From an uncultured Bacilli bacterium (GTDB taxonomy: Bacteria > Bacillota_I > Bacilli_A > RF39 > UBA660): a stretch of 64,000 bases of DNA. Positions 3,669 through 41,282 of the stretch are shown here, in pieces. The notes beneath the pieces are model-generated. The model saw only the letters and a program-made list of their open reading frames with translations, was not told the origin of the DNA and made no database searches. Numbering within the stretch: position 1 is the stretch's first letter; each line of letters starts with the position of its first letter. The DNA is taken from contig CALVYF010000001.1 in assembly GCA_944372055.1 (NCBI GenBank), positions 54,384-118,383 on the forward strand. Reading direction: 5' to 3'. The position numbers and the translations under genes were made by a program.

Positions 3669-4304
3669 ATGGCATCAGCAGTAATACATTTAGCAGTAGC
3701 AAAAGTACTAGAACCTTATTTTGACATAAAAAATAGAAAAGACTATTATCTAGGCTCAATTGCTCCTGATATTGCAAAACAGATAGGAAGAACAAAACAA
3801 GAATCACATTTTCTATATAACGAGAAAGAAGATGTACCAAATATAAAAATGTTTACAGATAAATATCCCCTATTTTATAAAAAAGATTTTGATTTAGGGT
3901 ATTATATACATTTATTTACAGATAAATTATGGTTTGACAAATTTTTAAATACTTTAGTACAAAGTAATTCTATTCGTTTAATAGATGGAACAATTGTAAA
4001 CATAGATCCAGACGAATTACCAAAATTAATTTATTCAGACTATACCAATCTAAATATTAAAGTAATAGAAGAATATAATATGGATTTATCACTTTTTTAT
4101 GAAAAATTTGAAAAGCCAGAAACTACAATCAATGAAGTTCCTATAGAACAGTTAAATATATTAATAGACAAAATGGGAATTATAATTGAAAACTCTACAA
4201 ATGAAAAAAATTATATTTTTGATATCTACTTAATCAAAGAATTTATTGAAACAACAAAAGAAAGAATACTAAAAGAAATAAAAGACTATGAACAAAATTC
4301 ATAG
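3669..4304 (+). CDS. hypothetical protein, possible zinc-dependent phospholipase-C-like fold
   Basis: 211 aa with N-terminal H-L-A-V-A, GSIAPD and HLFTD motifs that resemble the metal ligands of the Zn-dependent PLC family. A strong RBS (AGGAGGT) precedes the ATG. Confidence 0.35.
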   Translation: MASAVIHLAVAKVLEPYFDIKNRKDYYLGSIAPDIAKQIGRTKQESHFLYNEKEDVPNIKMFTDKYPLFYKKDFDLGYYIHLFTDKLWFDKFLNTLVQSNSIRLIDGTIVNIDPDELPKLIYSDYTNLNIKVIEEYNMDLSLFYEKFEKPETTINEVPIEQLNILIDKMGIIIENSTNEKNYIFDIYLIKEFIETTKERILKEIKDYEQNS

Positions 4305-4309
4305 TCTTT

Positions 4310-4630
4310 TTAATTAAATAATTGATAAAAATAATCGTTTAAATCATCTTCAACATAAGAAATCATCTGGTTTACTTTTTTTAAATGTCCTATATAAGTA
4401 ACATAAATTGGTATTTCATACAATTTATTCTCTACTTCTTCTAATTTTTCCCTATCTTGATAGCCATTCTTAACATATTCTTTCTGTAGAGTTTTTAATG
4501 TATCAATCAACTGCATTAGCTCTGCATTTTTTTTCATCTTTTCTTTTAACTTAATGCACTCTTGATAATCTTTACTATCTTTAATAACAGTAATAACTTC
4601 TTCTAGTTTTTTATTCAATAGCTTCACCAT
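4310..4630 (-). CDS. YlbF/YmcA-family regulatory protein
   Basis: About 106 aa, helical and charged. Located immediately downstream of miaB (ymcB), as ymcA is in Bacillus. Likely start is the ATG at 4630 with a GGAG RBS. The longer 114-aa ORF in the track overlaps the miaB 3' end. Confidence 0.55.
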   Translation of the reverse strand: MVKLLNKKLEEVITVIKDSKDYQECIKLKEKMKKNAELMQLIDTLKTLQKEYVKNGYQDREKLEEVENKLYEIPIYVTYIGHLKKVNQMISYVEDDLNDYFYQLFN

Positions 4631-6026
4631 CCAAACTCCACGTTTTAGCATCATTTATCTTAACCATAACTAAATCTCCAGGAGTAAGTTCTTTTTCACT
4701 AGAAAAATTAATTAATTTATTAGTATCACTATATCCATAATACATATGTTTTTTATCAGAAATCCCCTCTACTAGAACTTCAACTTCACGACCTTCAAGT
4801 TTTTTATTATTCTCTAAAAAATAATGATTAACAACTTCATTTAATCGTTGAAGACGTTCTTCTTTTTCTTTTTGAGAAACAGGGTCAGCTAATCTACAAG
4901 CAGGTGTTCCTTCTCTTTTAGAAAAGATAAAAGTAAAAGCATTATCATATTGACATTCACGAACTAAATCTAAAGTTTCTAAGAAATCCTCTTCAGTCTC
5001 ACCTGGAAAACCTACAATAATATCTGTAGAAATAGTAACACCAGAAACCCTATCCTTAATTTTATGAAATAACTCTAAATAACTTTCTTTAGTATATCTA
5101 CGTCCCATAAGTTTTAAAATACGACTAGAACCACTTTGTACTGGCAAATGAACACTAGGCATAATATTAGGATATTTCGCAATAACATCAATCATACAAT
5201 CTGTAAAATCCCATGGATGAGAAGTAGTAAAACGAATTCTAGGAATTCCCATATGTGCAACATCTTCCAATAAATTAGCCATAGTATAGTCATCATATAA
5301 ATCTTTACCATAGGCATTCACATTTTGACCAAGCAAAGTTACTTCCTTATATCCATCATCTACTAATTTTTGTACTTCTGCTAAAACATCTTCTTTTAAA
5401 CGACTTCTCTCACGTCCCCTAGTATAAGGAACAATACAATAAGTACAGAATTTATTACAACCATAAATGATATTAACATATGCCTTATAATCATTAACAC
5501 GAAGTACAGGTAATCCCTCAATCAAATCCCCTTCTCGAGAGAAAACCTCAATCTGTTGTTTATTCTCTTCAATAGCCTTATCTATAATTTCAGGTAATTG
5601 ATACATATTATGAGTACCAAAAACAAAGTTAACCCATTTATAATCTTTAAGAATAGTCTCAACAACACTTGCTTCCTGTGCCATACAGCCGCATAATCCA
5701 ACTATTAAATCTTTCTTCTCTTGCTTTAAATGTTTAAGTCTACCAAGCATTCCAAATGCTTTATTATGGGCATTTTCACGAATAGAACAAGTATTTAACA
5801 ATACTAAATCAGCATCCATATAATCATCGACTTTAGAAAATCCTAAAAAAGTAAGTAATGCTTCTATATTCTCACTATCATGCTCATTCATCTGACATCC
5901 ATAAGTCTTTAAATAAAATGTTTTTCCCCGATATTTATTTTTAACTTTATCATCTTCCTGAAATACCACTCTTTGATATGGTCTAATATCTCTTTTCCTA
6001 GCCTCTTTATAATCAGGTAAATGCAT
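4611..6026 (-). CDS. miaB: tRNA (N6-isopentenyl-adenosine-37) methylthiotransferase MiaB
   Basis: 471 aa. Radical-SAM CxxxCxxC (…YGCNKFCTYCIVP…), an N-terminal MTTase domain with conserved cysteines and a C-terminal TRAM domain. Confidence 0.9.
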   Translation of the reverse strand: MHLPDYKEARKRDIRPYQRVVFQEDDKVKNKYRGKTFYLKTYGCQMNEHDSENIEALLTFLGFSKVDDYMDADLVLLNTCSIRENAHNKAFGMLGRLKHLKQEKKDLIVGLCGCMAQEASVVETILKDYKWVNFVFGTHNMYQLPEIIDKAIEENKQQIEVFSREGDLIEGLPVLRVNDYKAYVNIIYGCNKFCTYCIVPYTRGRERSRLKEDVLAEVQKLVDDGYKEVTLLGQNVNAYGKDLYDDYTMANLLEDVAHMGIPRIRFTTSHPWDFTDCMIDVIAKYPNIMPSVHLPVQSGSSRILKLMGRRYTKESYLELFHKIKDRVSGVTISTDIIVGFPGETEEDFLETLDLVRECQYDNAFTFIFSKREGTPACRLADPVSQKEKEERLQRLNEVVNHYFLENNKKLEGREVEVLVEGISDKKHMYYGYSDTNKLINFSSEKELTPGDLVMVKINDAKTWSLDGEAIE

Positions 6027-6064: not shown

Positions 6065-6096
6065 AATAAAAAACAAAAAAGAGGAATTATCCTCTT
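6065..6096 (-). terminator. intrinsic terminator after the ankyrin-repeat gene
   Basis: Minus-strand RNA AAGAGGAUAAUUCCUCUU followed by UUUUGUUUUUUAUUUUU. Confidence 0.5.
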
Positions 6097-6790
6097 ATAT
6101 CACACTTTCTCTTAATGAAGTATTAATCATCTGATCTAATAAAGAAAATTTACCTCTCATCAAATCATGTTTAATAACTTCCATATTTTCTACAATTTTA
6201 TCTAACAATTCACTCATACTAGGAACCAAGTTATCTTTTTTCTCTAAACTATCAACAATATTTTCTAAATTTGTTAATTTAGAGTACTTACCATAATAAT
6301 TATTTTTTATACACAATTGATATAATTGTTTAAATGACAATACATCAATATTATTAAAACGTTTTTCTTCTAATATTTTTAATGCTTGAAAAGCACTTTG
6401 ATTATGAATAGCTAAATCTAAAACAGTCTCACCATTCTTATTCTTAATATTTAATAAATATCTTTTACTTTTCGTAAGATGTTCTAAAACCTTTAAAGCA
6501 GAAACTGATGTATCTTTTACAAGTAAATGACCAATGGTATTTCCATCTAAATTCTGATGATTTAAATTCCAACTACGTTTACGAATAAACTTTAAAACCA
6601 AATCATATTGTTTTGCTTTAAGCAAACGAGCAACAACGTCATTACCAGCAACATCGACTGTATTAATATCTACTTTATTTTTAGAAATAAGTTCATCTAC
6701 CAAATGATAGTACCCTTCCTTAATTAATTCAAAAATCAGGGACGGTTCCTCTTCACAAGCACGTAATGCCTGTTTTTCATCATAAAACAT
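6095..6790 (-). CDS. ankyrin-repeat protein
   Basis: Repeated ...G.T.LH.A...G...V..LL..GA..N... blocks (e.g. DVAGNDVVARLLKAKQYDLV, LDGNTIGHLLVKDTS, KNGETVLDLAIHNQSAFQALKILEE). Probable start is the ATG at 6790 with a GAGAGGTG RBS. Confidence 0.55.
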   Translation of the reverse strand: MFYDEKQALRACEEEPSLIFELIKEGYYHLVDELISKNKVDINTVDVAGNDVVARLLKAKQYDLVLKFIRKRSWNLNHQNLDGNTIGHLLVKDTSVSALKVLEHLTKSKRYLLNIKNKNGETVLDLAIHNQSAFQALKILEEKRFNNIDVLSFKQLYQLCIKNNYYGKYSKLTNLENIVDSLEKKDNLVPSMSELLDKIVENMEVIKHDLMRGKFSLLDQMINTSLRESVI

Positions 6791-6961
6791 GTATAACACC
6801 TCTCTGTTTATGTGACAGTTATATATTTTACCAGAAGAATCTATTTTTGTCAAATTATCATCCCTTCCCAAATACATTATTAGTATGGAAAAAAAGAAAA
6901 AATTTATACGAATTTCTAAGAAAGTGATATAATAAACTCAATTTAAGAAATGAGGAGTATT

Positions 6962-7882
6962 ATGAAAAAAAGCATAGACTTAGATGAAACATTAAAAACG
7001 ATTATACAATATTCTAGCAATATAAATACTTTATATCAAAACGCAGCTACTGCAAAAATAAAAGATGATGAAGAAGAATATAAAACACAACTAGACTACA
7101 TCGCTTTAACAGAAGAATACGAAGAAAAAGAATATCAAAAAATCGACTTTGAAAAGAACTTAAATGAAAGATTATATAGAAGGTTTATCTATCTATTAAA
7201 ACACAGCAATACCCCTCAAGAGATACATAATGATATATACCAAAGATTTAAAAATCATATTAATGAATTACTAATTAGAAATCCTTTTTTATCAAGGAAT
7301 CCATTTCTCTTAGAAAGAAAAGAAGAAAATGATGCATCAATTATATGGCAAGCAATGAGAGACTACTCTATCACAGCCCTATATTTTATGAATAAAGATA
7401 TAAATATCATAAAGAATGAAGCAATAAGACAAGATGCAATAGATTTTTACTATAAATTTATCTTTAAACAAAAAATCTTAAATCAATACCTGAAAACCCC
7501 TCCTCAAGAAATAGAAATTACAGGAAGAAATCGCTGTCTAGTGTTTAGACAAAATGAGAAACAAGTAAATGAATGCTATAACAAAATCATTATGGAAGCA
7601 TTAAATACAAGTATACCCATAATACTAAGCTATACAGATAGTTTTATAATAAATAACCCAAATCAATTAGCAGGACAAAGAATTCTTTTAAATCTCTTAA
7701 AAGCCGCAATTGCAATCGCAACAGATGAAGATAAAAAAGGAGTACGTATAAACTATCCAGAAATAGCAAAAGAAAATTCAAAAATCAGTATATATAGAAT
7801 AAATCGTGCAATCGAAGAAGCAAATTTAACTGTTCAAGATAAATTAGCACAAAAAAAGAAGTCTATGGACAAACCAAATTAG
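6962..7882 (+). CDS. hypothetical helical protein
   Basis: 306 aa with no recognisable motif. Divergent from the ankyrin gene. AGGAG RBS 5 nt before the ATG at 6962. Confidence 0.4.
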   Translation: MKKSIDLDETLKTIIQYSSNINTLYQNAATAKIKDDEEEYKTQLDYIALTEEYEEKEYQKIDFEKNLNERLYRRFIYLLKHSNTPQEIHNDIYQRFKNHINELLIRNPFLSRNPFLLERKEENDASIIWQAMRDYSITALYFMNKDINIIKNEAIRQDAIDFYYKFIFKQKILNQYLKTPPQEIEITGRNRCLVFRQNEKQVNECYNKIIMEALNTSIPIILSYTDSFIINNPNQLAGQRILLNLLKAAIAIATDEDKKGVRINYPEIAKENSKISIYRINRAIEEANLTVQDKLAQKKKSMDKPN

Positions 7883-7894
7883 ACTTCTTTTGTT

Positions 7895-9100
7895 TTATTT
7901 TAATTTAGTACCGCAATTAGTACAGAAATTACCCCCATTAGTAGGAGTACCACAATTAGGGCAGAAACTTGCTCCTTGAGTGGCTGGAGATTGTTGCTGT
8001 GGTTGTGATTGTTGTGGAGATACAGCTTGACCAGCAGCCACTGCACGAGCTTGATTTAATTGTTCTGCAGCTTGATTGGCATAAGGATCATATGCTTGCG
8101 TATTACCAGGAGTAGCTTGTGGATTAACTGCATTAGTTGCTACACCACCCATCATACCACCTGATGCCATATTCATCATACCAACACCTAAGAAACCATT
8201 CATAGCACCAGCTTCATTTTTAGCTGCATCTTGTACAGCATTAGCATAAGCACCAGTAAGAGTTCCTTGTTGCATAAATTGGTTAGATGATAATTCATAA
8301 TGATCAATTTTTTGATTAGATTCATCATCTAAAGTAACAGATTCAACAACAAATCCAACAATACTTAATCCTCTATCACGAATTGGTTGATCAAATACTT
8401 TTTCATCCATAACTTTTTTAATTTCATCAGTACTACTAGGTAACTCTAGTACTGGAACTTTATGTTCTGAAGTACCAAGTTCATTTAAGACATTTTGGAA
8501 AGCTCCAACGACTTCAGATCTCATTTGTTCACATAATTCATCTTTACGATACTCTTCTGCTGTACCTGCAATACGTGACATAAAAATAGCTGGATCACTA
8601 ATTTTAAATGTATACTTACCAAAACATTTTACTTCAACACGAAGTGGACTCATAGAACCAGTCATTTGATTTGGAATAGGATGAGACCAATCTTGATAAG
8701 GAATTGGTGCAGGTGTACCAAACTTATTATCCATAATCTCTTTAGCATTAATATAAAATACTGCTTGTTCTTTAAAAGTTCCACCATTATAAGTGAATCT
8801 TCCCCACATTTCTTTAAATACTGCACCAAATTGGCCAGCAAAGAATGATGGTGTTGTTGACTCATCAAAAGTAAAAATACCTTCTTCTGCAGTTGCATCT
8901 AAAATTTGACCATTTTGAAATACAACTGCAATTTGTCCAGGAGCAACCTGAATAGCACTATCTTTAGAGATAACACCATTAGGAGTGGATACTCTCTTCA
9001 TTAAAATATCTTGTCCTAAATCATCACATCTAATATACTCTTTCCATTGATCATGTAATGTACTTCCAATTGCAGACGCTGCTGCTTTAATTAACCCCAT
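7895..9100 (-). CDS. SPFH/band-7 family protein with C-terminal double zinc ribbon (B. subtilis YdjI-like)
   Basis: MGLIKAAASAIGSTLHDQWKEYI... is an N-terminus typical of the Band_7_1 family. The C-terminus FCPNCGTPTNGGNFCTNCG is a zinc ribbon. A Q/A/G-rich linker lies in between. Confidence 0.65.
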   Translation of the reverse strand: MGLIKAAASAIGSTLHDQWKEYIRCDDLGQDILMKRVSTPNGVISKDSAIQVAPGQIAVVFQNGQILDATAEEGIFTFDESTTPSFFAGQFGAVFKEMWGRFTYNGGTFKEQAVFYINAKEIMDNKFGTPAPIPYQDWSHPIPNQMTGSMSPLRVEVKCFGKYTFKISDPAIFMSRIAGTAEEYRKDELCEQMRSEVVGAFQNVLNELGTSEHKVPVLELPSSTDEIKKVMDEKVFDQPIRDRGLSIVGFVVESVTLDDESNQKIDHYELSSNQFMQQGTLTGAYANAVQDAAKNEAGAMNGFLGVGMMNMASGGMMGGVATNAVNPQATPGNTQAYDPYANQAAEQLNQARAVAAGQAVSPQQSQPQQQSPATQGASFCPNCGTPTNGGNFCTNCGTKLK

Positions 9101-9175
9101 AAATTTACCTCGCCTTCTATTTTCCAATATTATATATAAATAATATCACAATCAAACTATAAAAACCATATTTTT

Positions 9176-10072
9176 TTAAAATCTATGACCTCCACCACCG
9201 TGACTTCTTCCACTACTTCCACGATGTGTAGAACTTCCGCCACCACTTCCACCACTACTATTACTTTGATAAATTGGTGTAACCGTAGTATGTGTAGATA
9301 CTAATCTATCATGTATTGTTTTAATATGAACAGAATCTTTTACTAAATATTCTCTAGAAGAAGTAGCTTTCCTAACTAACTTATTTTTACTAACCATAAT
9401 TTTAATTACAATAACTGTAATAATGAAAGGAATACCAAACACTAAGAAATAAGGAAACTTTCGAACCACTTCACCATCATTTAATATTTCATAATTACTG
9501 TCTTTATTACTAGGTAAACCTAATTCAAAATAGTTTTCTAAAGTATTTATTGTACCTAAAACTCCTTCATAATAATTACCATTACTAAACTCTAAATAAA
9601 TATTATCTAAACAAGAATTAATACGATAATCACTATAATAATCTATAGCTTGACCTGTTGTTGAAATATATATTTCTCTTGTATCCATATCTACTAAAAA
9701 TAATACTCCAGTATTACTACTACCAACACCAAAGTCATTGTAATCATAAAAGTCATCAGCATAACTTTGAGCACTATTTTTATTATTCTCACTTATTGTC
9801 ACAACAACAAAATCCATATTAGTTGTATCAATATACTTCGTAATTTTCTTATATATAGTATCTTCTTCACTATCACTTAATAATTCTGCAAAGTCATATA
9901 CTTTTTCACTAGCATCAACAGCTGGAGTTGCTAGAATATCATCTTGATTATAAGGAGTAAGAACCCCTTCTGAAACTAATAAATTATCCGTTGTTCTAGG
10001 AAAGGTATTAGTACTAGCTGATACAGGTAAAAAAACTGAAAAAAGTAAAATAAAGACAATTAACTTTTTCAT
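9176..10072 (-). CDS. secreted TPM-domain-like protein with TM anchor and Gly/Ser-rich C-terminal tail (YdjH-like)
   Basis: Signal peptide MKKLIVFILLFSVFLPVSAS, a C-terminal TM segment and a GGSGGGSSTHRGSSGRSHGGGGHRF tail, an architecture typical of TPM/YgcG-type proteins. The ATG at 10072 overlaps the upstream stop (ATGA). Confidence 0.45.
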   Translation of the reverse strand: MKKLIVFILLFSVFLPVSASTNTFPRTTDNLLVSEGVLTPYNQDDILATPAVDASEKVYDFAELLSDSEEDTIYKKITKYIDTTNMDFVVVTISENNKNSAQSYADDFYDYNDFGVGSSNTGVLFLVDMDTREIYISTTGQAIDYYSDYRINSCLDNIYLEFSNGNYYEGVLGTINTLENYFELGLPSNKDSNYEILNDGEVVRKFPYFLVFGIPFIITVIVIKIMVSKNKLVRKATSSREYLVKDSVHIKTIHDRLVSTHTTVTPIYQSNSSGGSGGGSSTHRGSSGRSHGGGGHRF

Positions 10073-11106
10073 ATTACCCCTCCTAAATATAGACCTAACA
10101 TAATAAGAAAACATACTAAATAAATTCCTAAACTCCATAAAATAGTTCTTAATGGACTAATAGGTAAATCTCCCACTATTTTACCAGTTTGCCCATTCAT
10201 CGCAAAAGTATATTGTTTATCATGAAACTTAGTATTAACCATAAATACCGGTAACAAAATATAATTAACTTCATTACTTTTAATATCTAAACTATGACTA
10301 GTCATCGTAGAAGTTTGATGTCTAACTTTTTCCTTTACTAAACTTATTGTAGTATTAACAGTTCTCTCTTTTGCTCTTAAAATAGCTGTATCATTATCTA
10401 CATCATATTTTTCAGATAAAAATCCCGCTAAAAAAGCTTGATTATAACTTATTAATTCTTGGTAATCAAAAGGTTCTAAAGAATCCATCAAATCATCAGA
10501 AAATCTAGAAGAACCATCTGCTAATACTTTATCATAACTCATCTCTCCAGAACATGTAACATGAAATCTATCTGTTTTAGTATAACGATTACGTACATCA
10601 CTCCAAGTATGAACATCTGTTGCACTAAAATTTATCTTACCTGAAACATAAAAATCATAAGCCCAAAAAGGAATATAAATACCGGTTATTTTTTCTATAT
10701 TTTTTTTCGTTTTAAACTCTCTAGGAACTAATGGTTTATATTTAACAACCCTAACAAAAGCTTTAACTGCATCATCTTTTACTTTTTTAAAAGGAATGAT
10801 GTAATCTGGGATTCTACTATTATGAATACGATCCTTTAATATTGCTGTATTTCCACAATAAACACAAAATGTTGCTGTCATATTTTCATCAGCTATTATC
10901 TCAGCACCACAACTCTCACAACGATAAACATCTTTATCTTCAACTAAAATATCTTTTTTAACAACATTTTCTTTTTGATTTTTTTCTAACTCTTCTAACT
11001 GAAACTCTCCCCCACAATAAGAACATACCCAGCATTGTTTTTCAGCCGAAAATGGAATATCAGCACCACATCCAGGACATTTATAATTAACTGCACTTGA
11101 CTGCAT
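10069..11106 (-). CDS. zinc-ribbon protein (YdjG-like)
   Basis: The N-terminus carries two C-x2-C...C-x2-C ribbons (KCPGCGADI...CWVCSYCGG and YRCESCGAEI...CVYCGN) and there is a C-terminal TM helix. First gene of a three-gene operon with the TPM-like and SPFH genes. Confidence 0.45.
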   Translation of the reverse strand: MQSSAVNYKCPGCGADIPFSAEKQCWVCSYCGGEFQLEELEKNQKENVVKKDILVEDKDVYRCESCGAEIIADENMTATFCVYCGNTAILKDRIHNSRIPDYIIPFKKVKDDAVKAFVRVVKYKPLVPREFKTKKNIEKITGIYIPFWAYDFYVSGKINFSATDVHTWSDVRNRYTKTDRFHVTCSGEMSYDKVLADGSSRFSDDLMDSLEPFDYQELISYNQAFLAGFLSEKYDVDNDTAILRAKERTVNTTISLVKEKVRHQTSTMTSHSLDIKSNEVNYILLPVFMVNTKFHDKQYTFAMNGQTGKIVGDLPISPLRTILWSLGIYLVCFLIMLGLYLGGVI

Positions 11107-11142
11107 ACACATCACCTATCATATATAGAATAGCATAATCCT

Positions 11143-11170
11143 CCAAAAAAAAGAAGAGATTTACTCTTCA
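11143..11170 (-). terminator. intrinsic terminator overlapping the stop of a small upstream ORF, directly 5' of the ydjG-like start
   Basis: Minus-strand RNA GAAGAGUAAAUCUCUUC followed by U8, then a GGAGG RBS and the operon start. There is no room for a promoter between the terminator and the first gene. Confidence 0.45.
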
Positions 11171-11301
11171 ATCTTTTTAAAACTAGATTCTTTATCAACA
11201 ACTTCAACTAAAATTTTCCCTTCCCTTGAATTAGAATCAATATAAATATTTTTCATAGCAGATTCCTGCCCTACCACTTCACATCTTTTCTCTTCTTCCA
11301 T
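11161..11301 (-). CDS. small acidic ORF (46 aa), possible leader peptide or small protein
   Basis: MEEEKRCEVVGQESAMKNIYIDSNSREGKILVEVVDKESSFKKIEE. GGTGA RBS 4 nt upstream of the ATG at 11301. Its stop codon lies inside the terminator hairpin. Confidence 0.2.
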   Translation of the reverse strand: MEEEKRCEVVGQESAMKNIYIDSNSREGKILVEVVDKESSFKKIEE

Positions 11302-11354
11302 TCTATCACCATTAAATAGTATGCCAAAAGAAAAAAGAAATATACCAATATTTC

Positions 11355-12638
11355 TTATTCTGCTTTAATAACTTCTTTTCCACCCATATATGGTTGTAAT
11401 ACTTTAGGAATTTTTATACTTCCGTCTTCTTGATAATTATTTTCAATGAAAGCAATCAATCCACGAGGAGTCGCAACAACAGTATTATTCAAAGTATGTA
11501 AGAAATAAGTACCTTTTTCACCCTTCTTACGAATGCCAAGACGTCTAGCTTGTGCATCTCCTAAATTAGAACAACTTCCAACTTCAAAGTATTTCTTTTG
11601 TCTAGGACTCCATGCTTCAATATCACAAGACTTAACTTTCAAATCAGCTAAATCACCACTACAACATTCAAGTTGTCTTACTGGAATATCTAAACTTCTA
11701 AAGAAGTCCACAGTTAATTTCCACATCTTTTCATACCAATCCATAGATTCTTCAGGTTCACAAATAACAATCATCTCTTGTTTTTCAAATTGATGAACAC
11801 GATAAAGCCCTCTTTCTTCCAATCCATGAGCTCCACCCTCTTTACGGAAACAAGGAGAATAACTTGTCATATGAATAGGAAGTTCACGATCTTTAATTAT
11901 CTGATCTTTAAACTTACCAATCATAGAATGTTCTGAAGTTCCAATTAAATATAAATCTTCTCCCTCAATCTTATACATCATAGCTTCCATCTCTGGGAAA
12001 GACATAACACCAGTAACAACATCACTATGAATCATAAACGGTGGAATTGCATAAGTAAATCCAGCATCTATCATAAAGTCTCTAGCATAAGCAAGCATTG
12101 CTTCATGAAGACGTGCAATATCACCAAGTAAATAATAAAATCCTTGTCCACTAGTTCTACCAGCCGCATCTTTATCCATACCTTGAAGTCTTTCAATGAT
12201 ATCAGCATGATATGGAATCTCATACTCTGGAACTACAGGATCACCAAATTTTTGTACTTCTACATTTTCACTATCATCTCGACCAATAGGTACAGATGAA
12301 TCCATAATTTGTGGAATTACCATCATACGGTCTTTAATTTCACGAGAAAGTTCTTCTTGTTCCTTCTCCAAAGCACTAATTTCATCAGCAGTCTTCGCAA
12401 TATCAGCTTTAATTTTTTCAGCTTCATCCCTTTTTCCATCTTTCATTAACTTACCAATTTCGCCACTCATACGATTCTTATCAGCTTTTAATCCGTCAGC
12501 TTTAACTTGTACTTCACGTACTCTCTTATCCATTTCATAAACTTCATCTACCAAAGGAAGTTTTTCATCTTGAAATTTATTTTTAATATTTTCCTTTACT
12601 AAATCCTTATTTTCTCTAATTAATTTAATATCTATCAT
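11355..12638 (-). CDS. serS: seryl-tRNA synthetase
   Basis: 427 aa with an N-terminal coiled-coil arm and class II motifs (…FRKEGGAHGLEERGLYRVHQFEKQEM…). Confidence 0.95.
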   Translation of the reverse strand: MIDIKLIRENKDLVKENIKNKFQDEKLPLVDEVYEMDKRVREVQVKADGLKADKNRMSGEIGKLMKDGKRDEAEKIKADIAKTADEISALEKEQEELSREIKDRMMVIPQIMDSSVPIGRDDSENVEVQKFGDPVVPEYEIPYHADIIERLQGMDKDAAGRTSGQGFYYLLGDIARLHEAMLAYARDFMIDAGFTYAIPPFMIHSDVVTGVMSFPEMEAMMYKIEGEDLYLIGTSEHSMIGKFKDQIIKDRELPIHMTSYSPCFRKEGGAHGLEERGLYRVHQFEKQEMIVICEPEESMDWYEKMWKLTVDFFRSLDIPVRQLECCSGDLADLKVKSCDIEAWSPRQKKYFEVGSCSNLGDAQARRLGIRKKGEKGTYFLHTLNNTVVATPRGLIAFIENNYQEDGSIKIPKVLQPYMGGKEVIKAE

Positions 12639-18119: not shown

Positions 18120-18205
18120 ATATACCTCCATTATTTTCTATGTAAAATATTAAAAAAATATACATAAATATAAAAAAGAATGATATGATGAAAATAGGTG
18201 ATAAA

Positions 18206-19069
18206 ATGAAAAAAAGGAAAATAAAAAAAGGGCCTAAAATAGTTTTGTTTTTATTAATTGTTTTTTTAGTGATAGGAGGCCTAATCATAAATCAAAATAA
18301 CCAAGAAACAAAAGAAAAACCCAAAAAGCAAACAAAAGAGGAACAAAAAATAAACAAGTTAAAATCGATTCCATATTACAAAAAAGAATATCAAAAAAGA
18401 TATTTAGAATATCAAAAAGATAATCCTAACTTATCAGTAGAAAATATAGTAACTTATGTAAACATAGGAATAGATAAACCATACTACACAAACACAAAAC
18501 CATCAAAAAACTTAAATACAAATTTAATATTAGTAAATAAATACAATTATTTAACAGAAGACTACTTACCAAAAAATCTAGAACCAATCGATATAGCATA
18601 TGCCAGAAGCGGAATGCAATTAGTAAGTGAAGCAAGGTCTGCATTCGAAATACTTTCAGAAGACGCTAAAAAAGAAGGAATGAATATTATTGCTATGTCT
18701 AGTTATAGAAGTTATGACTACCAAGTGAATCTATACGATAATTATGTAGCAACGGATGGAAAAGAAGCTGCAGACACCTATTCTGCTAGAGCAGGATATT
18801 CTGAACATCAAACCGGTTTAGCAGTAGATGTCTATAATAAAGTTTTACCTTACACATCATTTGAAGAAACAGAAGAATTTAATTGGATGCAAGAAAATGC
18901 CTATAAATATGGATTCATTTTAAGATTTCCAAAAGATAAAGTAAATATCACAGGTTATCAATATGAATCATGGCATTATCGTTATGTAGGGAAAGAAGCT
19001 GCTAAATATATTCACAACCACGATTTAACATTAGAAGAATACTATGTAAAAAAGGTTGAGAAAAATTAA
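18206..19069 (+). CDS. M15/VanY-type D-Ala-D-Ala carboxypeptidase, membrane anchored
   Basis: N-terminal TM helix and Lys-rich linker. The C-terminal domain has ...SSYRSYDYQ...GYSEHQTGLAVDV...ESWHYRYVG..., typical of VanY/M15B zinc peptidases. GGTGA RBS before the ATG at 18206. Confidence 0.65.
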   Translation: MKKRKIKKGPKIVLFLLIVFLVIGGLIINQNNQETKEKPKKQTKEEQKINKLKSIPYYKKEYQKRYLEYQKDNPNLSVENIVTYVNIGIDKPYYTNTKPSKNLNTNLILVNKYNYLTEDYLPKNLEPIDIAYARSGMQLVSEARSAFEILSEDAKKEGMNIIAMSSYRSYDYQVNLYDNYVATDGKEAADTYSARAGYSEHQTGLAVDVYNKVLPYTSFEETEEFNWMQENAYKYGFILRFPKDKVNITGYQYESWHYRYVGKEAAKYIHNHDLTLEEYYVKKVEKN

Positions 19070-19665
19070 TTCTCAACCTTTTTTTCATCAAATTTTTTCT
19101 TAAAAAACAAATACAAATAATAAAAACAACTAACGACAACCCAAAATAATGTAACCAAATTACTAACCTGAACTAATGACAAAATCTGATTATTTTGATA
19201 TAAAAGCACGGTATCAGCAAAATCTATCTTACTATAAACAGCCAGTACAATAAACATTGAAAAAAGCAAAAAAACAATAATACTACAACAATAATTAAAT
19301 ACTTTTTTCATTGGTTTCATTTTCTTACTAAACATAGTAATGAAACACACTGCGACCATAAAAAGAAAAATAAAGAAATAAACAATAGTAGAAGGAAAAT
19401 AATAGTAATCCATAATTTTCATAATAAAAGAATCAAGACAGGTAATAGCATAAGAAGAAAAGATAAAACAAAATACACTAATACCACTAACAATAAAAAT
19501 AGCTAAAACAATAGGAACGATTTTATTTTTAATCTTAACATTAAAAACTAACACTAAAAATAATAAAAGGAAGAATAAAACTAGTTCAATAGACATAAAA
19601 GATGAAAATAATAATTGAAATATTATTTTCATCTTATCAAAAAGTCCTAAATCCATAGCCCACAC
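19066..19665 (-). CDS. polytopic membrane protein, unknown function
   Basis: 199 aa with about 6 hydrophobic helices and no motif I recognise. Confidence 0.35.
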   Translation of the reverse strand: MWAMDLGLFDKMKIIFQLLFSSFMSIELVLFFLLLFLVLVFNVKIKNKIVPIVLAIFIVSGISVFCFIFSSYAITCLDSFIMKIMDYYYFPSTIVYFFIFLFMVAVCFITMFSKKMKPMKKVFNYCCSIIVFLLFSMFIVLAVYSKIDFADTVLLYQNNQILSLVQVSNLVTLFWVVVSCFYYLYLFFKKKFDEKKVEN

Positions 19666-39102: not shown

Positions 39103-40779
39103 ATGGAAAAACCTAATGGAACAAAGATTGTTGTTTTAGGAGGTCTCGGAGAAGTCGGAAAAAATATGTATTGTGTAATGCATAACGACGCTATTGTAAT
39201 TATTGATACCGGTGTAAGTTTCCCAGAAAGCGAACTTATGGGAGTAGATTATGTTTTACCTGATTTTACATTTCTAAAAAAGAATGAAAATAAAATCAAA
39301 GCACTTTTAATTACTCATGGACATGAAGATCATATTGGAGGAATTCCCTTTTTATTACAAAGTCTTAATATTCCTGCCATTTATGCACCAAATCATGCAA
39401 AAGAATTAATTGCTGTAAAATTACAAGATAAAAACATAAGATACGATAATTTATTTGTTTATACAGAAGATACAAAATTAAAATTTAAAGAAATCGAAAT
39501 TGAATTTTTTAGAGTAACTCACTCTATCCCAGATTCTCATGGAATTAGTATTAAAACACCAGATGGAAGAATTGTAACAACAGGAGATTATAAATTTGAT
39601 CTTACTCCAATTGGACCAATGGCCAACTTATATAAAATGGCATGTCTTGGGGAAGATGGAGTAGATTTATTCATAGGGGACTCTACAAATGCGTTAAATG
39701 AAGGGTTTTCAACAAGTGAATCCGTAGTAGATGAAACGTTAGGAGAAATGTTTGATAAATGTAAAACCAATCGTATTATCATCGCAACATTTGCTTCTAA
39801 CATTTATCGTATCAAGCATATTTTTGAAACTTGCTATAAACATAATAGAAAAATATGTATCTTCGGTAGAAGTATGGAAAATAATATTAATATTTCTCTA
39901 AATGCTGGCTATATTAATCATAAAGAACTGCTAGTTTCTCCTGAAGAAGCTAACAACTTAAAACCTGGAGAAGTAGCAATCCTTTGCACAGGAAGTCAAG
40001 GAGAACCACTTGCTGCCTTATCAAGAATTTCCAATGGTACGCATAAACAAATCAAATTAAGACCAGATGATGTAGTTATTTTTTCATCTAGTGCCATTCC
40101 AGGAAATGCACTAAGCATAACAAAGACAATTAATAAATTATGTCTAAAAGGAGTAAAAGTTTATACAAACTCATCTCTAGCAGACTTACACACATCAGGA
40201 CATGCCAATGAAGAAGAAATAAAACTAGCAATACGTTTATTAAAACCAAAATACTTAATGCCATTCCATGGAGACTATAGAATGTTAAAACGACAAGCAG
40301 ACATTGGAATTAGTTGTGGAATACCAAAAGAAAATACTTTCATTCTAAAAAATGGTGATAGCTTAACTCTTAAAGATCACGTAGTAACAAAAGGAGAAAG
40401 CATGCCAGGAGCTGACGTCTATGTAGATGGAAATAGAATTGGAGAAATTGGTAGTGCCGTAATTAAAGACAGAAAAATTATGGCAAACGATGGTATTTTA
40501 GTAGTAATTGTCAACGTAAACATGAAAAAAAGAGAACTATTAATAAAACCAAATATTACAACGAGAGGCTTCGTCTTAGTAAATGAAAATGAAGAATTAA
40601 TTCATAAAATTGAAAATAAAGCAGAAACAATTATTAAATCCGAGTTAACAAATCCTAAAACAACATTTCAATCATTAAAAACTGATATAACAGAAGAATT
40701 ATATCCATTTATTAATGATTTAACTGGTAGAAAACCAATTATTTTACCAATTATTTTAGATATCAAAAAAGAAAAATAG
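39103..40779 (+). CDS. rnj: ribonuclease J (metallo-beta-lactamase/beta-CASP)
   Basis: 558 aa. HGHEDHIGG motif, beta-CASP region and a C-terminal domain. Confidence 0.9.
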   Translation: MEKPNGTKIVVLGGLGEVGKNMYCVMHNDAIVIIDTGVSFPESELMGVDYVLPDFTFLKKNENKIKALLITHGHEDHIGGIPFLLQSLNIPAIYAPNHAKELIAVKLQDKNIRYDNLFVYTEDTKLKFKEIEIEFFRVTHSIPDSHGISIKTPDGRIVTTGDYKFDLTPIGPMANLYKMACLGEDGVDLFIGDSTNALNEGFSTSESVVDETLGEMFDKCKTNRIIIATFASNIYRIKHIFETCYKHNRKICIFGRSMENNINISLNAGYINHKELLVSPEEANNLKPGEVAILCTGSQGEPLAALSRISNGTHKQIKLRPDDVVIFSSSAIPGNALSITKTINKLCLKGVKVYTNSSLADLHTSGHANEEEIKLAIRLLKPKYLMPFHGDYRMLKRQADIGISCGIPKENTFILKNGDSLTLKDHVVTKGESMPGADVYVDGNRIGEIGSAVIKDRKIMANDGILVVIVNVNMKKRELLIKPNITTRGFVLVNENEELIHKIENKAETIIKSELTNPKTTFQSLKTDITEELYPFINDLTGRKPIILPIILDIKKEK

Positions 40780-40798
40780 ACACCAGTCTATTTTTTTT
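40775..40798. terminator. hairpin terminator at the rnj stop / convergent gene end
   Basis: ATAGACaccaGTCTAT followed by T8, with an A-rich tract upstream, so it can act bidirectionally. Confidence 0.5.
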
Positions 40799-41282
40799 GA
40801 TGAATTTTTTCCATAATATCATTAGTAATATTTGGATAAAAATCTGGAACTTCACAAAACTTTTTCAAATCATTAGGAATTCCAGAAAAAGGTCTAATAA
40901 AAGAAGATACAACAAATTGCTCTTTTCCCAAAATTTCCGCTTGATAAAGAGAACTATAATATTTAACTGTATCTGATAAATAAGGAAGAATATCTTGATT
41001 ACCCCCAGCTGCATAATAATTTTTTATTTGATAAGAAAGAAATGATAAATCACCTTTATTATCTAAATAATTAGGATTTAAACACATTCTAAAGTTATGA
41101 TTTAAAATAAGTAAAGAACGATAAGCTTCGTAAGAATATGTATCATCATGATAAATAATGGATTCTAAAATCATATTCATGCGATGCAGTGTATCCAAAA
41201 GGGTAGCACTATCCATATTAGAAAAACGACAGCTCTCATCAATCAACCATAAAAATTGCTTCTCCATAATATCATTCAGCAT
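40788..41282 (-). CDS. hypothetical protein
   Basis: 164 aa, no motif recognised. Located just upstream of rny on the same strand. Confidence 0.3.
   Translation of the reverse strand: MLNDIMEKQFLWLIDESCRFSNMDSATLLDTLHRMNMILESIIYHDDTYSYEAYRSLLILNHNFRMCLNPNYLDNKGDLSFLSYQIKNYYAAGGNQDILPYLSDTVKYYSSLYQAEILGKEQFVVSSFIRPFSGIPNDLKKFCEVPDFYPNITNDIMEKIHQKK

Follow-up and report, generated by a model that had tools for sequence, protein, structure and literature searches.

In a 64,000-nucleotide stretch of DNA from an uncultured Bacilli bacterium (contig CALVYF010000001.1, from here on the window), a small gene for an acidic protein of 46 amino acids (aa) lies directly ahead of three genes that resemble ydjG, ydjH and ydjI of Bacillus subtilis. 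Between them is a hairpin followed by a run of T's, and this hairpin holds the stop codon of the small gene. The best explanation, and one we hold to be reasonably likely, is that the locus consists of two adjacent expression units and not of one attenuated operon. All features of the locus are on the minus strand, and positions are counted along the window.

The first unit would be the small gene, translated from the ATG at 11301 by way of a GGTGAT ribosome-binding site (RBS). Its transcript would end at an intrinsic terminator of the ordinary kind, with a stop codon that happens to fall inside the hairpin. The second unit would be a pspA-less module of the YdjG/YdjH/YdjI type, made up of two membrane proteins, one with zinc ribbons and one with a TPM domain, and a soluble SPFH protein. 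This module would owe most of its transcription to an extended -10 element of its own, TGCTATTCT (11135-11127), which lies between the T-run and the RBS, with a -35 region that overlaps the terminator. The terminator would then insulate the module from transcription of the small gene and of serS, the seryl-tRNA synthetase gene before it. The hairpin is weak, with a predicted stability of -5.8 kcal/mol, and the module is therefore probably also expressed to some extent by passive read-through. There is no sign that this is regulated.

An earlier, sequence-only reading of this DNA described the same features, and all of them were indeed found in the sequence on the minus strand. It went on to state that the promoter of the module must lie upstream of the terminator, as only some 30 nucleotides separate that terminator from the module. 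Such a gap is no proof of an upstream promoter, because it can hold a -10 element.

What is mildly new here is a lineage-restricted, uncharacterised family of 46-aa proteins that takes the "pspA slot" ahead of a YdjGHI-type module. Modules of SPFH, TPM and zinc-ribbon proteins of this type occur without PspA, and one gut-associated lineage of Bacilli consistently has a tiny conserved protein ahead of them. If the small protein and the module do interact, this would provide a handle on how PspA-less membrane-maintenance modules are organised.

The small gene and its family

The 46-aa open reading frame (ORF) is strongly supported as a genuine protein-coding gene by the way it varies among relatives. 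This bears out a suggestion, made as an alternative in the sequence-only reading, that it is an unannotated small protein gene. Fifteen distinct nucleotide versions from related contigs were compared pairwise using the Nei-Gojobori method. The median ratio of nonsynonymous to synonymous change (dN/dS) is 0.09 over 99 pairs. Codon positions 1, 2 and 3 have 22, 15 and 34 variable columns respectively, and serine is encoded in some versions by TCT and in others by AGT. Such a pattern arises only under selection on a translated product. The frame and its RBS are kept open in all relatives.

Gene callers disagree on this gene, and deliver versions of 31, 46 and 55-73 aa. The 31-aa version starts at an internal methionine (Met16). 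This residue is a leucine in three lineages, and the 15 codons ahead of it also show synonymous change, which argues that translation starts at the first ATG. For annotation, this means that the gene should start at that ATG, with a length of 46-47 aa.

A protein search yields homologues in 29 clusters, with lengths of 46-47 aa and the invariant core NIxIDxNS...K.L.EVV.KES. In the family alignment, 14 core residues are invariant. In a profile search of 1.84 billion representative proteins, the family has only 13 members at 50% identity, and the search revealed no distant homologues in larger families and no link to them. Judged by these searches, the family is narrow, consisting of Candidatus Faecimonas and close relatives. 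The product has no match in Pfam, NCBIfam or PADLOC. AlphaFold models it as a beta-hairpin (residues 18-22 and 31-35) at low confidence, with a predicted local distance difference test (pLDDT) score of 60.

The profile search also returned a single long match, the metagenomic protein P0153 (258 aa), in which a FlgL-like flagellar protein continues in frame, at its C-terminus, into a homologue of the small protein. A lost stop codon or an artefact of assembly is the probable cause, though the fusion may also point to a different genomic context.

The terminator and its embedded stop codon

The TAA stop codon of the small gene (11163-11161) is inside the hairpin loop, and the hairpin begins 9 nucleotides before the end of that codon. 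From the end of the T-run it is 28 nucleotides to the RBS of the YdjG-like gene, and 38 to its ATG. Between 7500 and 12000, four terminator-like sites were found where 1.2 are expected by chance.

A hairpin followed by 7 to 10 T's is present at the end of the small gene in every relative except for one paralog. Predicted stabilities across this family of hairpins run from -4.7 to -9.3 kcal/mol. The hairpins were judged sequence by sequence, as MAFFT misaligned stems that shift position. The stems themselves vary: GAAGAG/CTCTTC, GAAGAC/GTCTTC, GAAGAT/ATCTTC, GAACC/GGTTC, GATATG.../...CATATC and AACACTTTAC/GTAAAGTGTT. Because stems differ while hairpin and T-run are kept, it is the structure that is selected and not its sequence. 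The element is thus best described as a conserved, predicted intrinsic terminator with compensatory changes in its stem. The small gene and the hairpin both recur in relatives, apart from three relatives that lack the gene (L006-L008, discussed below).

One relative (L014, around 4640-4700) has a 19-nucleotide tandem duplication (agagtagaggaact...) in this terminator region, which is absent in L015. The duplication leaves the outer stem and the T-run intact.

The overlap of stop codon and terminator is not in itself conserved, since in L032, the most divergent relative, the hairpin starts about 10 nucleotides past the stop codon. Such overlaps are also common in the window (for example 11326-11356, 18185-19665 and 39103-41282). 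Out of 54 genes scanned, 25 have a terminator-like site. For 13 of these 25 the stem overlaps the stop codon or lies right against it, and for 18 the distance is no more than 5 nucleotides. The small-gene terminator is an ordinary example, and an embedded stop codon is usual in this genome. Several terminators in the window serve convergent gene pairs in both directions.

In Firmicutes, terminators that overlap stop codons have been described for B. subtilis, where they are interpreted as a result of RNA polymerase outrunning the ribosomes (a passage in a review, PMC7858274, citing Johnson et al. 2020). Going by that passage, masking of such terminators by ribosomes is unlikely, precisely because the polymerase is ahead. 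The frequent stop-proximal terminators in the window fit an organism in which transcription and translation are uncoupled. Next to the stop-proximal terminators of this 'runaway transcription', the one in the window is the same, with nothing distinctive about it. For genome scans, this means that a terminator that swallows a stop codon 30 nucleotides from the next gene is no evidence of attenuation in low-GC Firmicutes.

A candidate promoter for the module

TGnTAnnnT is a form of the extended -10 element that is common in low-GC Gram-positives. It is found between the T-run and the RBS of the next gene in 12 of 13 distinct sequences, and is also present in L028, L032 and L033. The distance to the start codon is 14-30 nucleotides, except for L016, which has two motifs at 60 and 93 nucleotides upstream. 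The versions encountered are TGATAAAAT, TGATATAAT, TGATATCAT, TGATATGCT and TGGTATGAT, and the TGCTATTCT of the window. TG, TA and the final T are fixed, and the other positions vary. Several relatives have a perfect TGATATAAT. Between the window and L009, 23 nucleotides around the motif are identical, while the adjacent ORF has a synonymous divergence (dS) of 0.33. Upstream of the genes in the window, the motif is only 1.7-fold enriched, which is weak, and the promoter argument therefore rests on conservation across lineages. From this conservation we infer that TGCTATTCT is an active promoter.

Three relatives (L006-L008) do not have the small gene at all. They do keep the terminator, the motif TGATATCCT and an intact three-gene module. 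The alignment (around 3934-4001) fits a single deletion that runs from just past the serS stop codon to the 3' arm of the small-gene terminator. This leaves serS ending in a GAAGA/TCTTC hairpin, with the -10-like motif of the module directly after it.

Attenuation would call for a competing structure, and only the terminator recurs. A scan of 10900-11500 against Rfam 15 at a permissive E-value returned only a plant microRNA model, at 27 bits versus a gathering score of 96. A single-sequence fold of the ORF region has z = -0.28, with no structure beyond the terminator. RNAalifold gives the same region -0.55 kcal/mol and an unfavourable (positive) covariation term, and shows no conserved antiterminator.

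Since the motif is conserved after the terminator, the module persists without the small gene, and no antiterminator is conserved, the module very probably has a promoter of its own, and control by read-through is not needed. Neither the claim that the promoter must be upstream of the terminator nor the claim that transcription requires attenuation-like read-through is supported by these observations.

The best sigma-70-like match in the region is TTGGCA-16-TAGAAT (11327-11300), which has a TG and scores 10 out of 12. As a promoter for the small gene it was rejected, because it overlaps the RBS and ATG of that very gene. In part it is a GGTGAT with an AT-rich spacer that mimics an extended -10 element.

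Directly after the T-run of the window there is also a GGAGGA, followed by a mini-ORF of five codons (11121-11144, minus strand; ATG CTA TTC TAT ATA TGA). The GGAGGA is not conserved in L009, and this arrangement is probably due to chance.

The three-gene module

The three genes are called identically on an identical public contig (L004). They had been described as co-oriented and overlapping. All three do point the same way, and the first two overlap by 4 nucleotides. The SPFH gene does not take part in this; it begins 75 nucleotides after the end of the TPM gene.

The YdjG-like protein has four CxxC pairs and a transmembrane (TM) segment at its C-terminus. The cysteines of these pairs are invariant across 30 homologues, and more than 6,600 homologues are detectable. 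An AlphaFold2 model (m14f9824c122e, pLDDT 75) has a C-terminal helix at 318-341 and a central domain of three beta strands, each about 23-33 residues long, that form unusually long beta-hairpins with a pLDDT of up to 95. This model had no significant match among solved structures in the PDB, so that the published assignment as NTF2-like and YpeB-related is not confirmed by it.

The TPM protein carries a signal peptide and a Gly-rich tail, and has a TM segment behind its TPM domain. It matches the TPM domain of PDB entry 7tbr at 4e-9, and a sequence search of the PDB matched TPM domains only. The SPFH protein has a Q/A/G-rich region and CPNCG..CTNCG at the C-terminus, and is without a TM segment. 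The members of its 90%-identity cluster are named 'SPFH domain-containing protein [Candidatus Faecimonas]' by NCBI, and are placed in class Bacilli, incertae sedis.

The sequence-only reading looked to profile searches to relate these proteins to the ydjG, ydjH and ydjI families. Two of them have a Pfam domain match, to PF04536 and PF13421. The zinc-ribbon Pfam matches of the YdjG-like protein stay below threshold. PADLOC finds no defence system among the proteins of the locus, save for a weak zinc-ribbon hit. As had been noted, no pspA is adjacent to the module; the ORF in its place has no Pfam or NCBIfam hit. Within the window there are ten further ORFs of the size of PspA, and these are of other families or unassigned.

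Gene context in relatives

The neighbourhood is syntenic in all relatives, from an M19 peptidase through serS to an ankyrin-repeat protein and MiaB. A scan of genome contigs for the YdjG-like protein gave only 3 loci, one of them truncated, and a pattern scan of metagenome contigs gave 6.

Five different, unrelated insertions are found in relatives, and all five are between serS and the small gene: PHP; LysR with PHP; GNAT with rubrerythrin; two proteins of 136 and 514 aa; and a 77-aa protein with a sortase. Between the small gene and ydjG there are only membrane or zinc-ribbon proteins. These are a family of about 232 aa with a TM segment and a zinc ribbon, a 268-aa protein, and a pair of 224 and 294 aa after which a second copy of the small gene follows.

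The small gene stays directly upstream where only SPFH is left of the module (L016, L022), or only YdjG and TPM (L028). It is also found without a module (L030, L031), just as the module is found without the small gene in L006-L008.

One relative (L018/L019) has two paralogs of the small gene, at 4501-4641 and 6358-6504. The first copy is without a terminator, and is followed by the 224-aa protein, which has two TM segments, and the 294-aa protein, which has an N-terminal zinc ribbon. It appears to be co-transcribed with this pair. The second copy has the hairpin and seven T's, and then TGGTATGAT ahead of the ydjG-like gene. Given this gene context, we hold a functional link between the small protein and the module to be about as likely as not.

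The protein of about 232 aa is absent from the window. It is encoded between the small gene and the ydjG-like gene in L012 (3263-3961), L020, L023-L026 and L033 (3043-3744). It carries a TM segment at the N-terminus and a CPNCG..CSYCG zinc ribbon at the C-terminus, and none of its Pfam matches passes the cut-off. Possibly it is one more component of the module. The idea that the small gene is a remnant of this longer gene was rejected, because both are present in L012, L020 and L033.

Weighing the explanations

In the sequence-only reading, the module has no promoter and is transcribed from upstream of the small gene, with regulated, translation-coupled read-through in which ribosomes mask the hairpin. 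The geometry is suggestive, as a ribosome that terminates on a stop codon in the loop would cover the 3' arm, and the T-run ends a mere 28 nucleotides from the RBS. But in L032 the hairpin is clear of the stop codon, and in the window overlapping terminators are the norm, which for Firmicutes is taken as a sign that ribosomes trail RNA polymerase (PMC7858274, in the passage mentioned above). The order of small gene, terminator and module is kept in nearly all relatives, but L006-L008 have the intact module without the ORF, so there is no dependence in cis on a leader. The hairpins are weak across their whole range of -4.7 to -9.3 kcal/mol, but no antiterminator is conserved to compete with them. 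And while the candidate -10 of the window is poor, the extended -10 motif downstream of the terminator is conserved, and is a perfect TGATATAAT in several relatives. Finally, purifying selection acts on the whole length of the peptide, unlike in typical leader peptides. We consider attenuation improbable. That the 140-nucleotide stretch is a non-coding RNA, such as a small RNA or riboswitch-like leader in which the ORF is incidental, is close to inconceivable. The layout of a transcript of about 150 nucleotides ending in a terminator would suit such an RNA, and TTGGCA-16-TAGAAT with its TG would start transcription inside the ORF. The substitution pattern effectively refutes this, with its dN/dS of 0.09, third-position changes and serine codon switches; frame and RBS are kept in all relatives, and there is no Rfam match and no conserved structure beyond the terminator.

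Another thought is that the small gene is real and unrelated to the module, and lies where it does because a narrow clade has inherited this synteny. From the M19 peptidase to MiaB all of the region is syntenic, gene and module each occur without the other (L030 and L031; L006-L008), and a terminator and a separate promoter-like element stand between them. Mere inheritance sits less well with five different insertions that all landed between serS and the small gene, with only membrane and zinc-ribbon proteins between the small gene and ydjG, with the small gene directly upstream of reduced modules in L016, L022 and L028, and with the second paralog in L018 and L019, which precedes a membrane/zinc-ribbon pair with no terminator in between. 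This explanation is unlikely, but it has some weight. At the other end, the 46-aa protein could be a dedicated and previously unrecognised component of the YdjGHI module in the slot of PspA, for example an adaptor or regulator that binds zinc-ribbon partners, or its translation could tune read-through. This is rather doubtful. It comes with the equally doubtful idea that the pre-terminator slot, which PspA fills in Bacillus, is a highly expressed one.

Several points weigh against two separate expression units. The relatives form a narrow clade, so their loci are not independent. In AT-rich DNA, TGnTAnnnT has a chance rate of about 0.003 per nucleotide, and GGTGAT ribosome-binding sites themselves resemble it. 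Within the family, the window has the weakest -10 hexamer (TATTCT), and the candidate promoter has no recognisable -35. A sigma-70 scan identified no promoter for the small gene. In addition, the strict order of small gene, terminator and module across lineages also fits an operon that is partly read through, which is how the pspA-terminator-ydjGHI layout of B. subtilis has been read (PMC8581546).

Comparison with known systems

In B. subtilis, YdjG combines two zinc ribbons with an uncharacterised domain (NTF2-like, YpeB-related) and a TM segment, and in YdjH a TPM domain is joined by a low-complexity tail (PMC11237479, PMC8581546, PMC9239133). The proposed match of the module to this architecture is upheld, in that published domain layouts and gene order agree. 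The likeness is drawn from these descriptions and from gene order, not from sequence alignment, and on that footing assignment to the YdjG/YdjH/YdjI type is supported at the level of architecture. As in the pspA-ydjG-ydjH-ydjI operon of the sigma-W regulon, the three proteins are in the same order and orientation. The SPFH protein of the window also fits a feature described for YdjI (PMC8581546).

In that operon, a Rho-independent terminator separates pspA from the ydj genes (PMC8581546). The layout of an upstream gene, a terminator and then ydjGHI was therefore already known. The difference is in what fills the slot before the terminator: pspA in B. subtilis, and in the window the 46-aa acidic protein, which has no detectable similarity to PspA. 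The window is also without a sigma-W promoter, as TGAAAC-N16-CGTA has no match anywhere in it. Instead there is the sigma-A-type extended -10 motif after the terminator.

Triads without pspA are found elsewhere too. In two metagenome-assembled genomes of Clostridia (L002, L003), Band_7_1, YdjG-like and TPM genes are adjacent, beside unrelated genes, and neither of these two other Firmicute loci has a pspA next to the triad. The order there is different (SPFH, YdjG-like, TPM), and there is no homologue of the small gene.

Ribosome-mediated attenuators include trp in E. coli, and bmrB-bmrCD and vmlR in B. subtilis. Like the window, these have a short ORF, an intrinsic terminator at once after it and then structural genes. 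Unlike them, the window has no competing antiterminator, its peptide is conserved over the whole length, a conserved promoter-like element follows the terminator, and the module persists without the ORF.

Features and neighbouring genes

Table 1 Coordinates of the locus features, as positions in the window.
Feature	Position	Strand	Details
serS (seryl-tRNA synthetase), upstream neighbour outside the module	11355..12638	-	427-aa ORF; PF02403 and PF00587 on the identical gene of contig L004
serS intrinsic terminator	11326..11356	-	AAGAAATAT-tggt-ATATTTCTT, then T-rich run; read in sequence; stem begins within the serS stop codon
RBS of the small gene	11305..11310	-	GGTGAT; same type as before the YdjG-like gene; conserved in relatives
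Small protein gene	11161..11301	-	46 aa, acidic, net charge about -4; core motif NIxIDxNSKEGKLLVEVVDKES
Small-gene intrinsic terminator	11145..11169	-	Hairpin GAAGAG-TAAAT-CTCTTC at 11169-11153 (6-base-pair stem); eight T's at 11152-11145
Candidate extended -10 element	11127..11135	-	TGCTATTCT; proposed from conservation
RBS of the YdjG-like gene	11111..11116	-	GGTGAT; read in sequence
YdjG-like gene	10069..11106	-	345 aa; two zinc ribbons, central beta-rich domain, C-terminal TM helix
YdjH-like TPM-domain membrane protein gene	9176..10072	-	298 aa; PF04536, E=3e-28
SPFH gene (YdjI-like)	7895..9100	-	PF13421 at 3e-21

The serS terminator is placed at -2 nucleotides from the stop codon in one scan, and relatives have equivalent hairpins after serS.

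On the other side of the module, an ORF of 310 aa on the plus strand (6950-7882) is convergent on the SPFH gene. It has no match in Pfam or PADLOC, and most relatives have a counterpart, a conserved gene for 290-306 aa on the opposite strand. Just downstream of the module is the gene for the ankyrin-repeat protein (6095-6877, minus strand; Ank_4, E=2e-7), whose position is shared by all relatives; a MiaB-like radical-SAM gene comes after it. In bacteria, ankyrin repeats are relatively uncommon.

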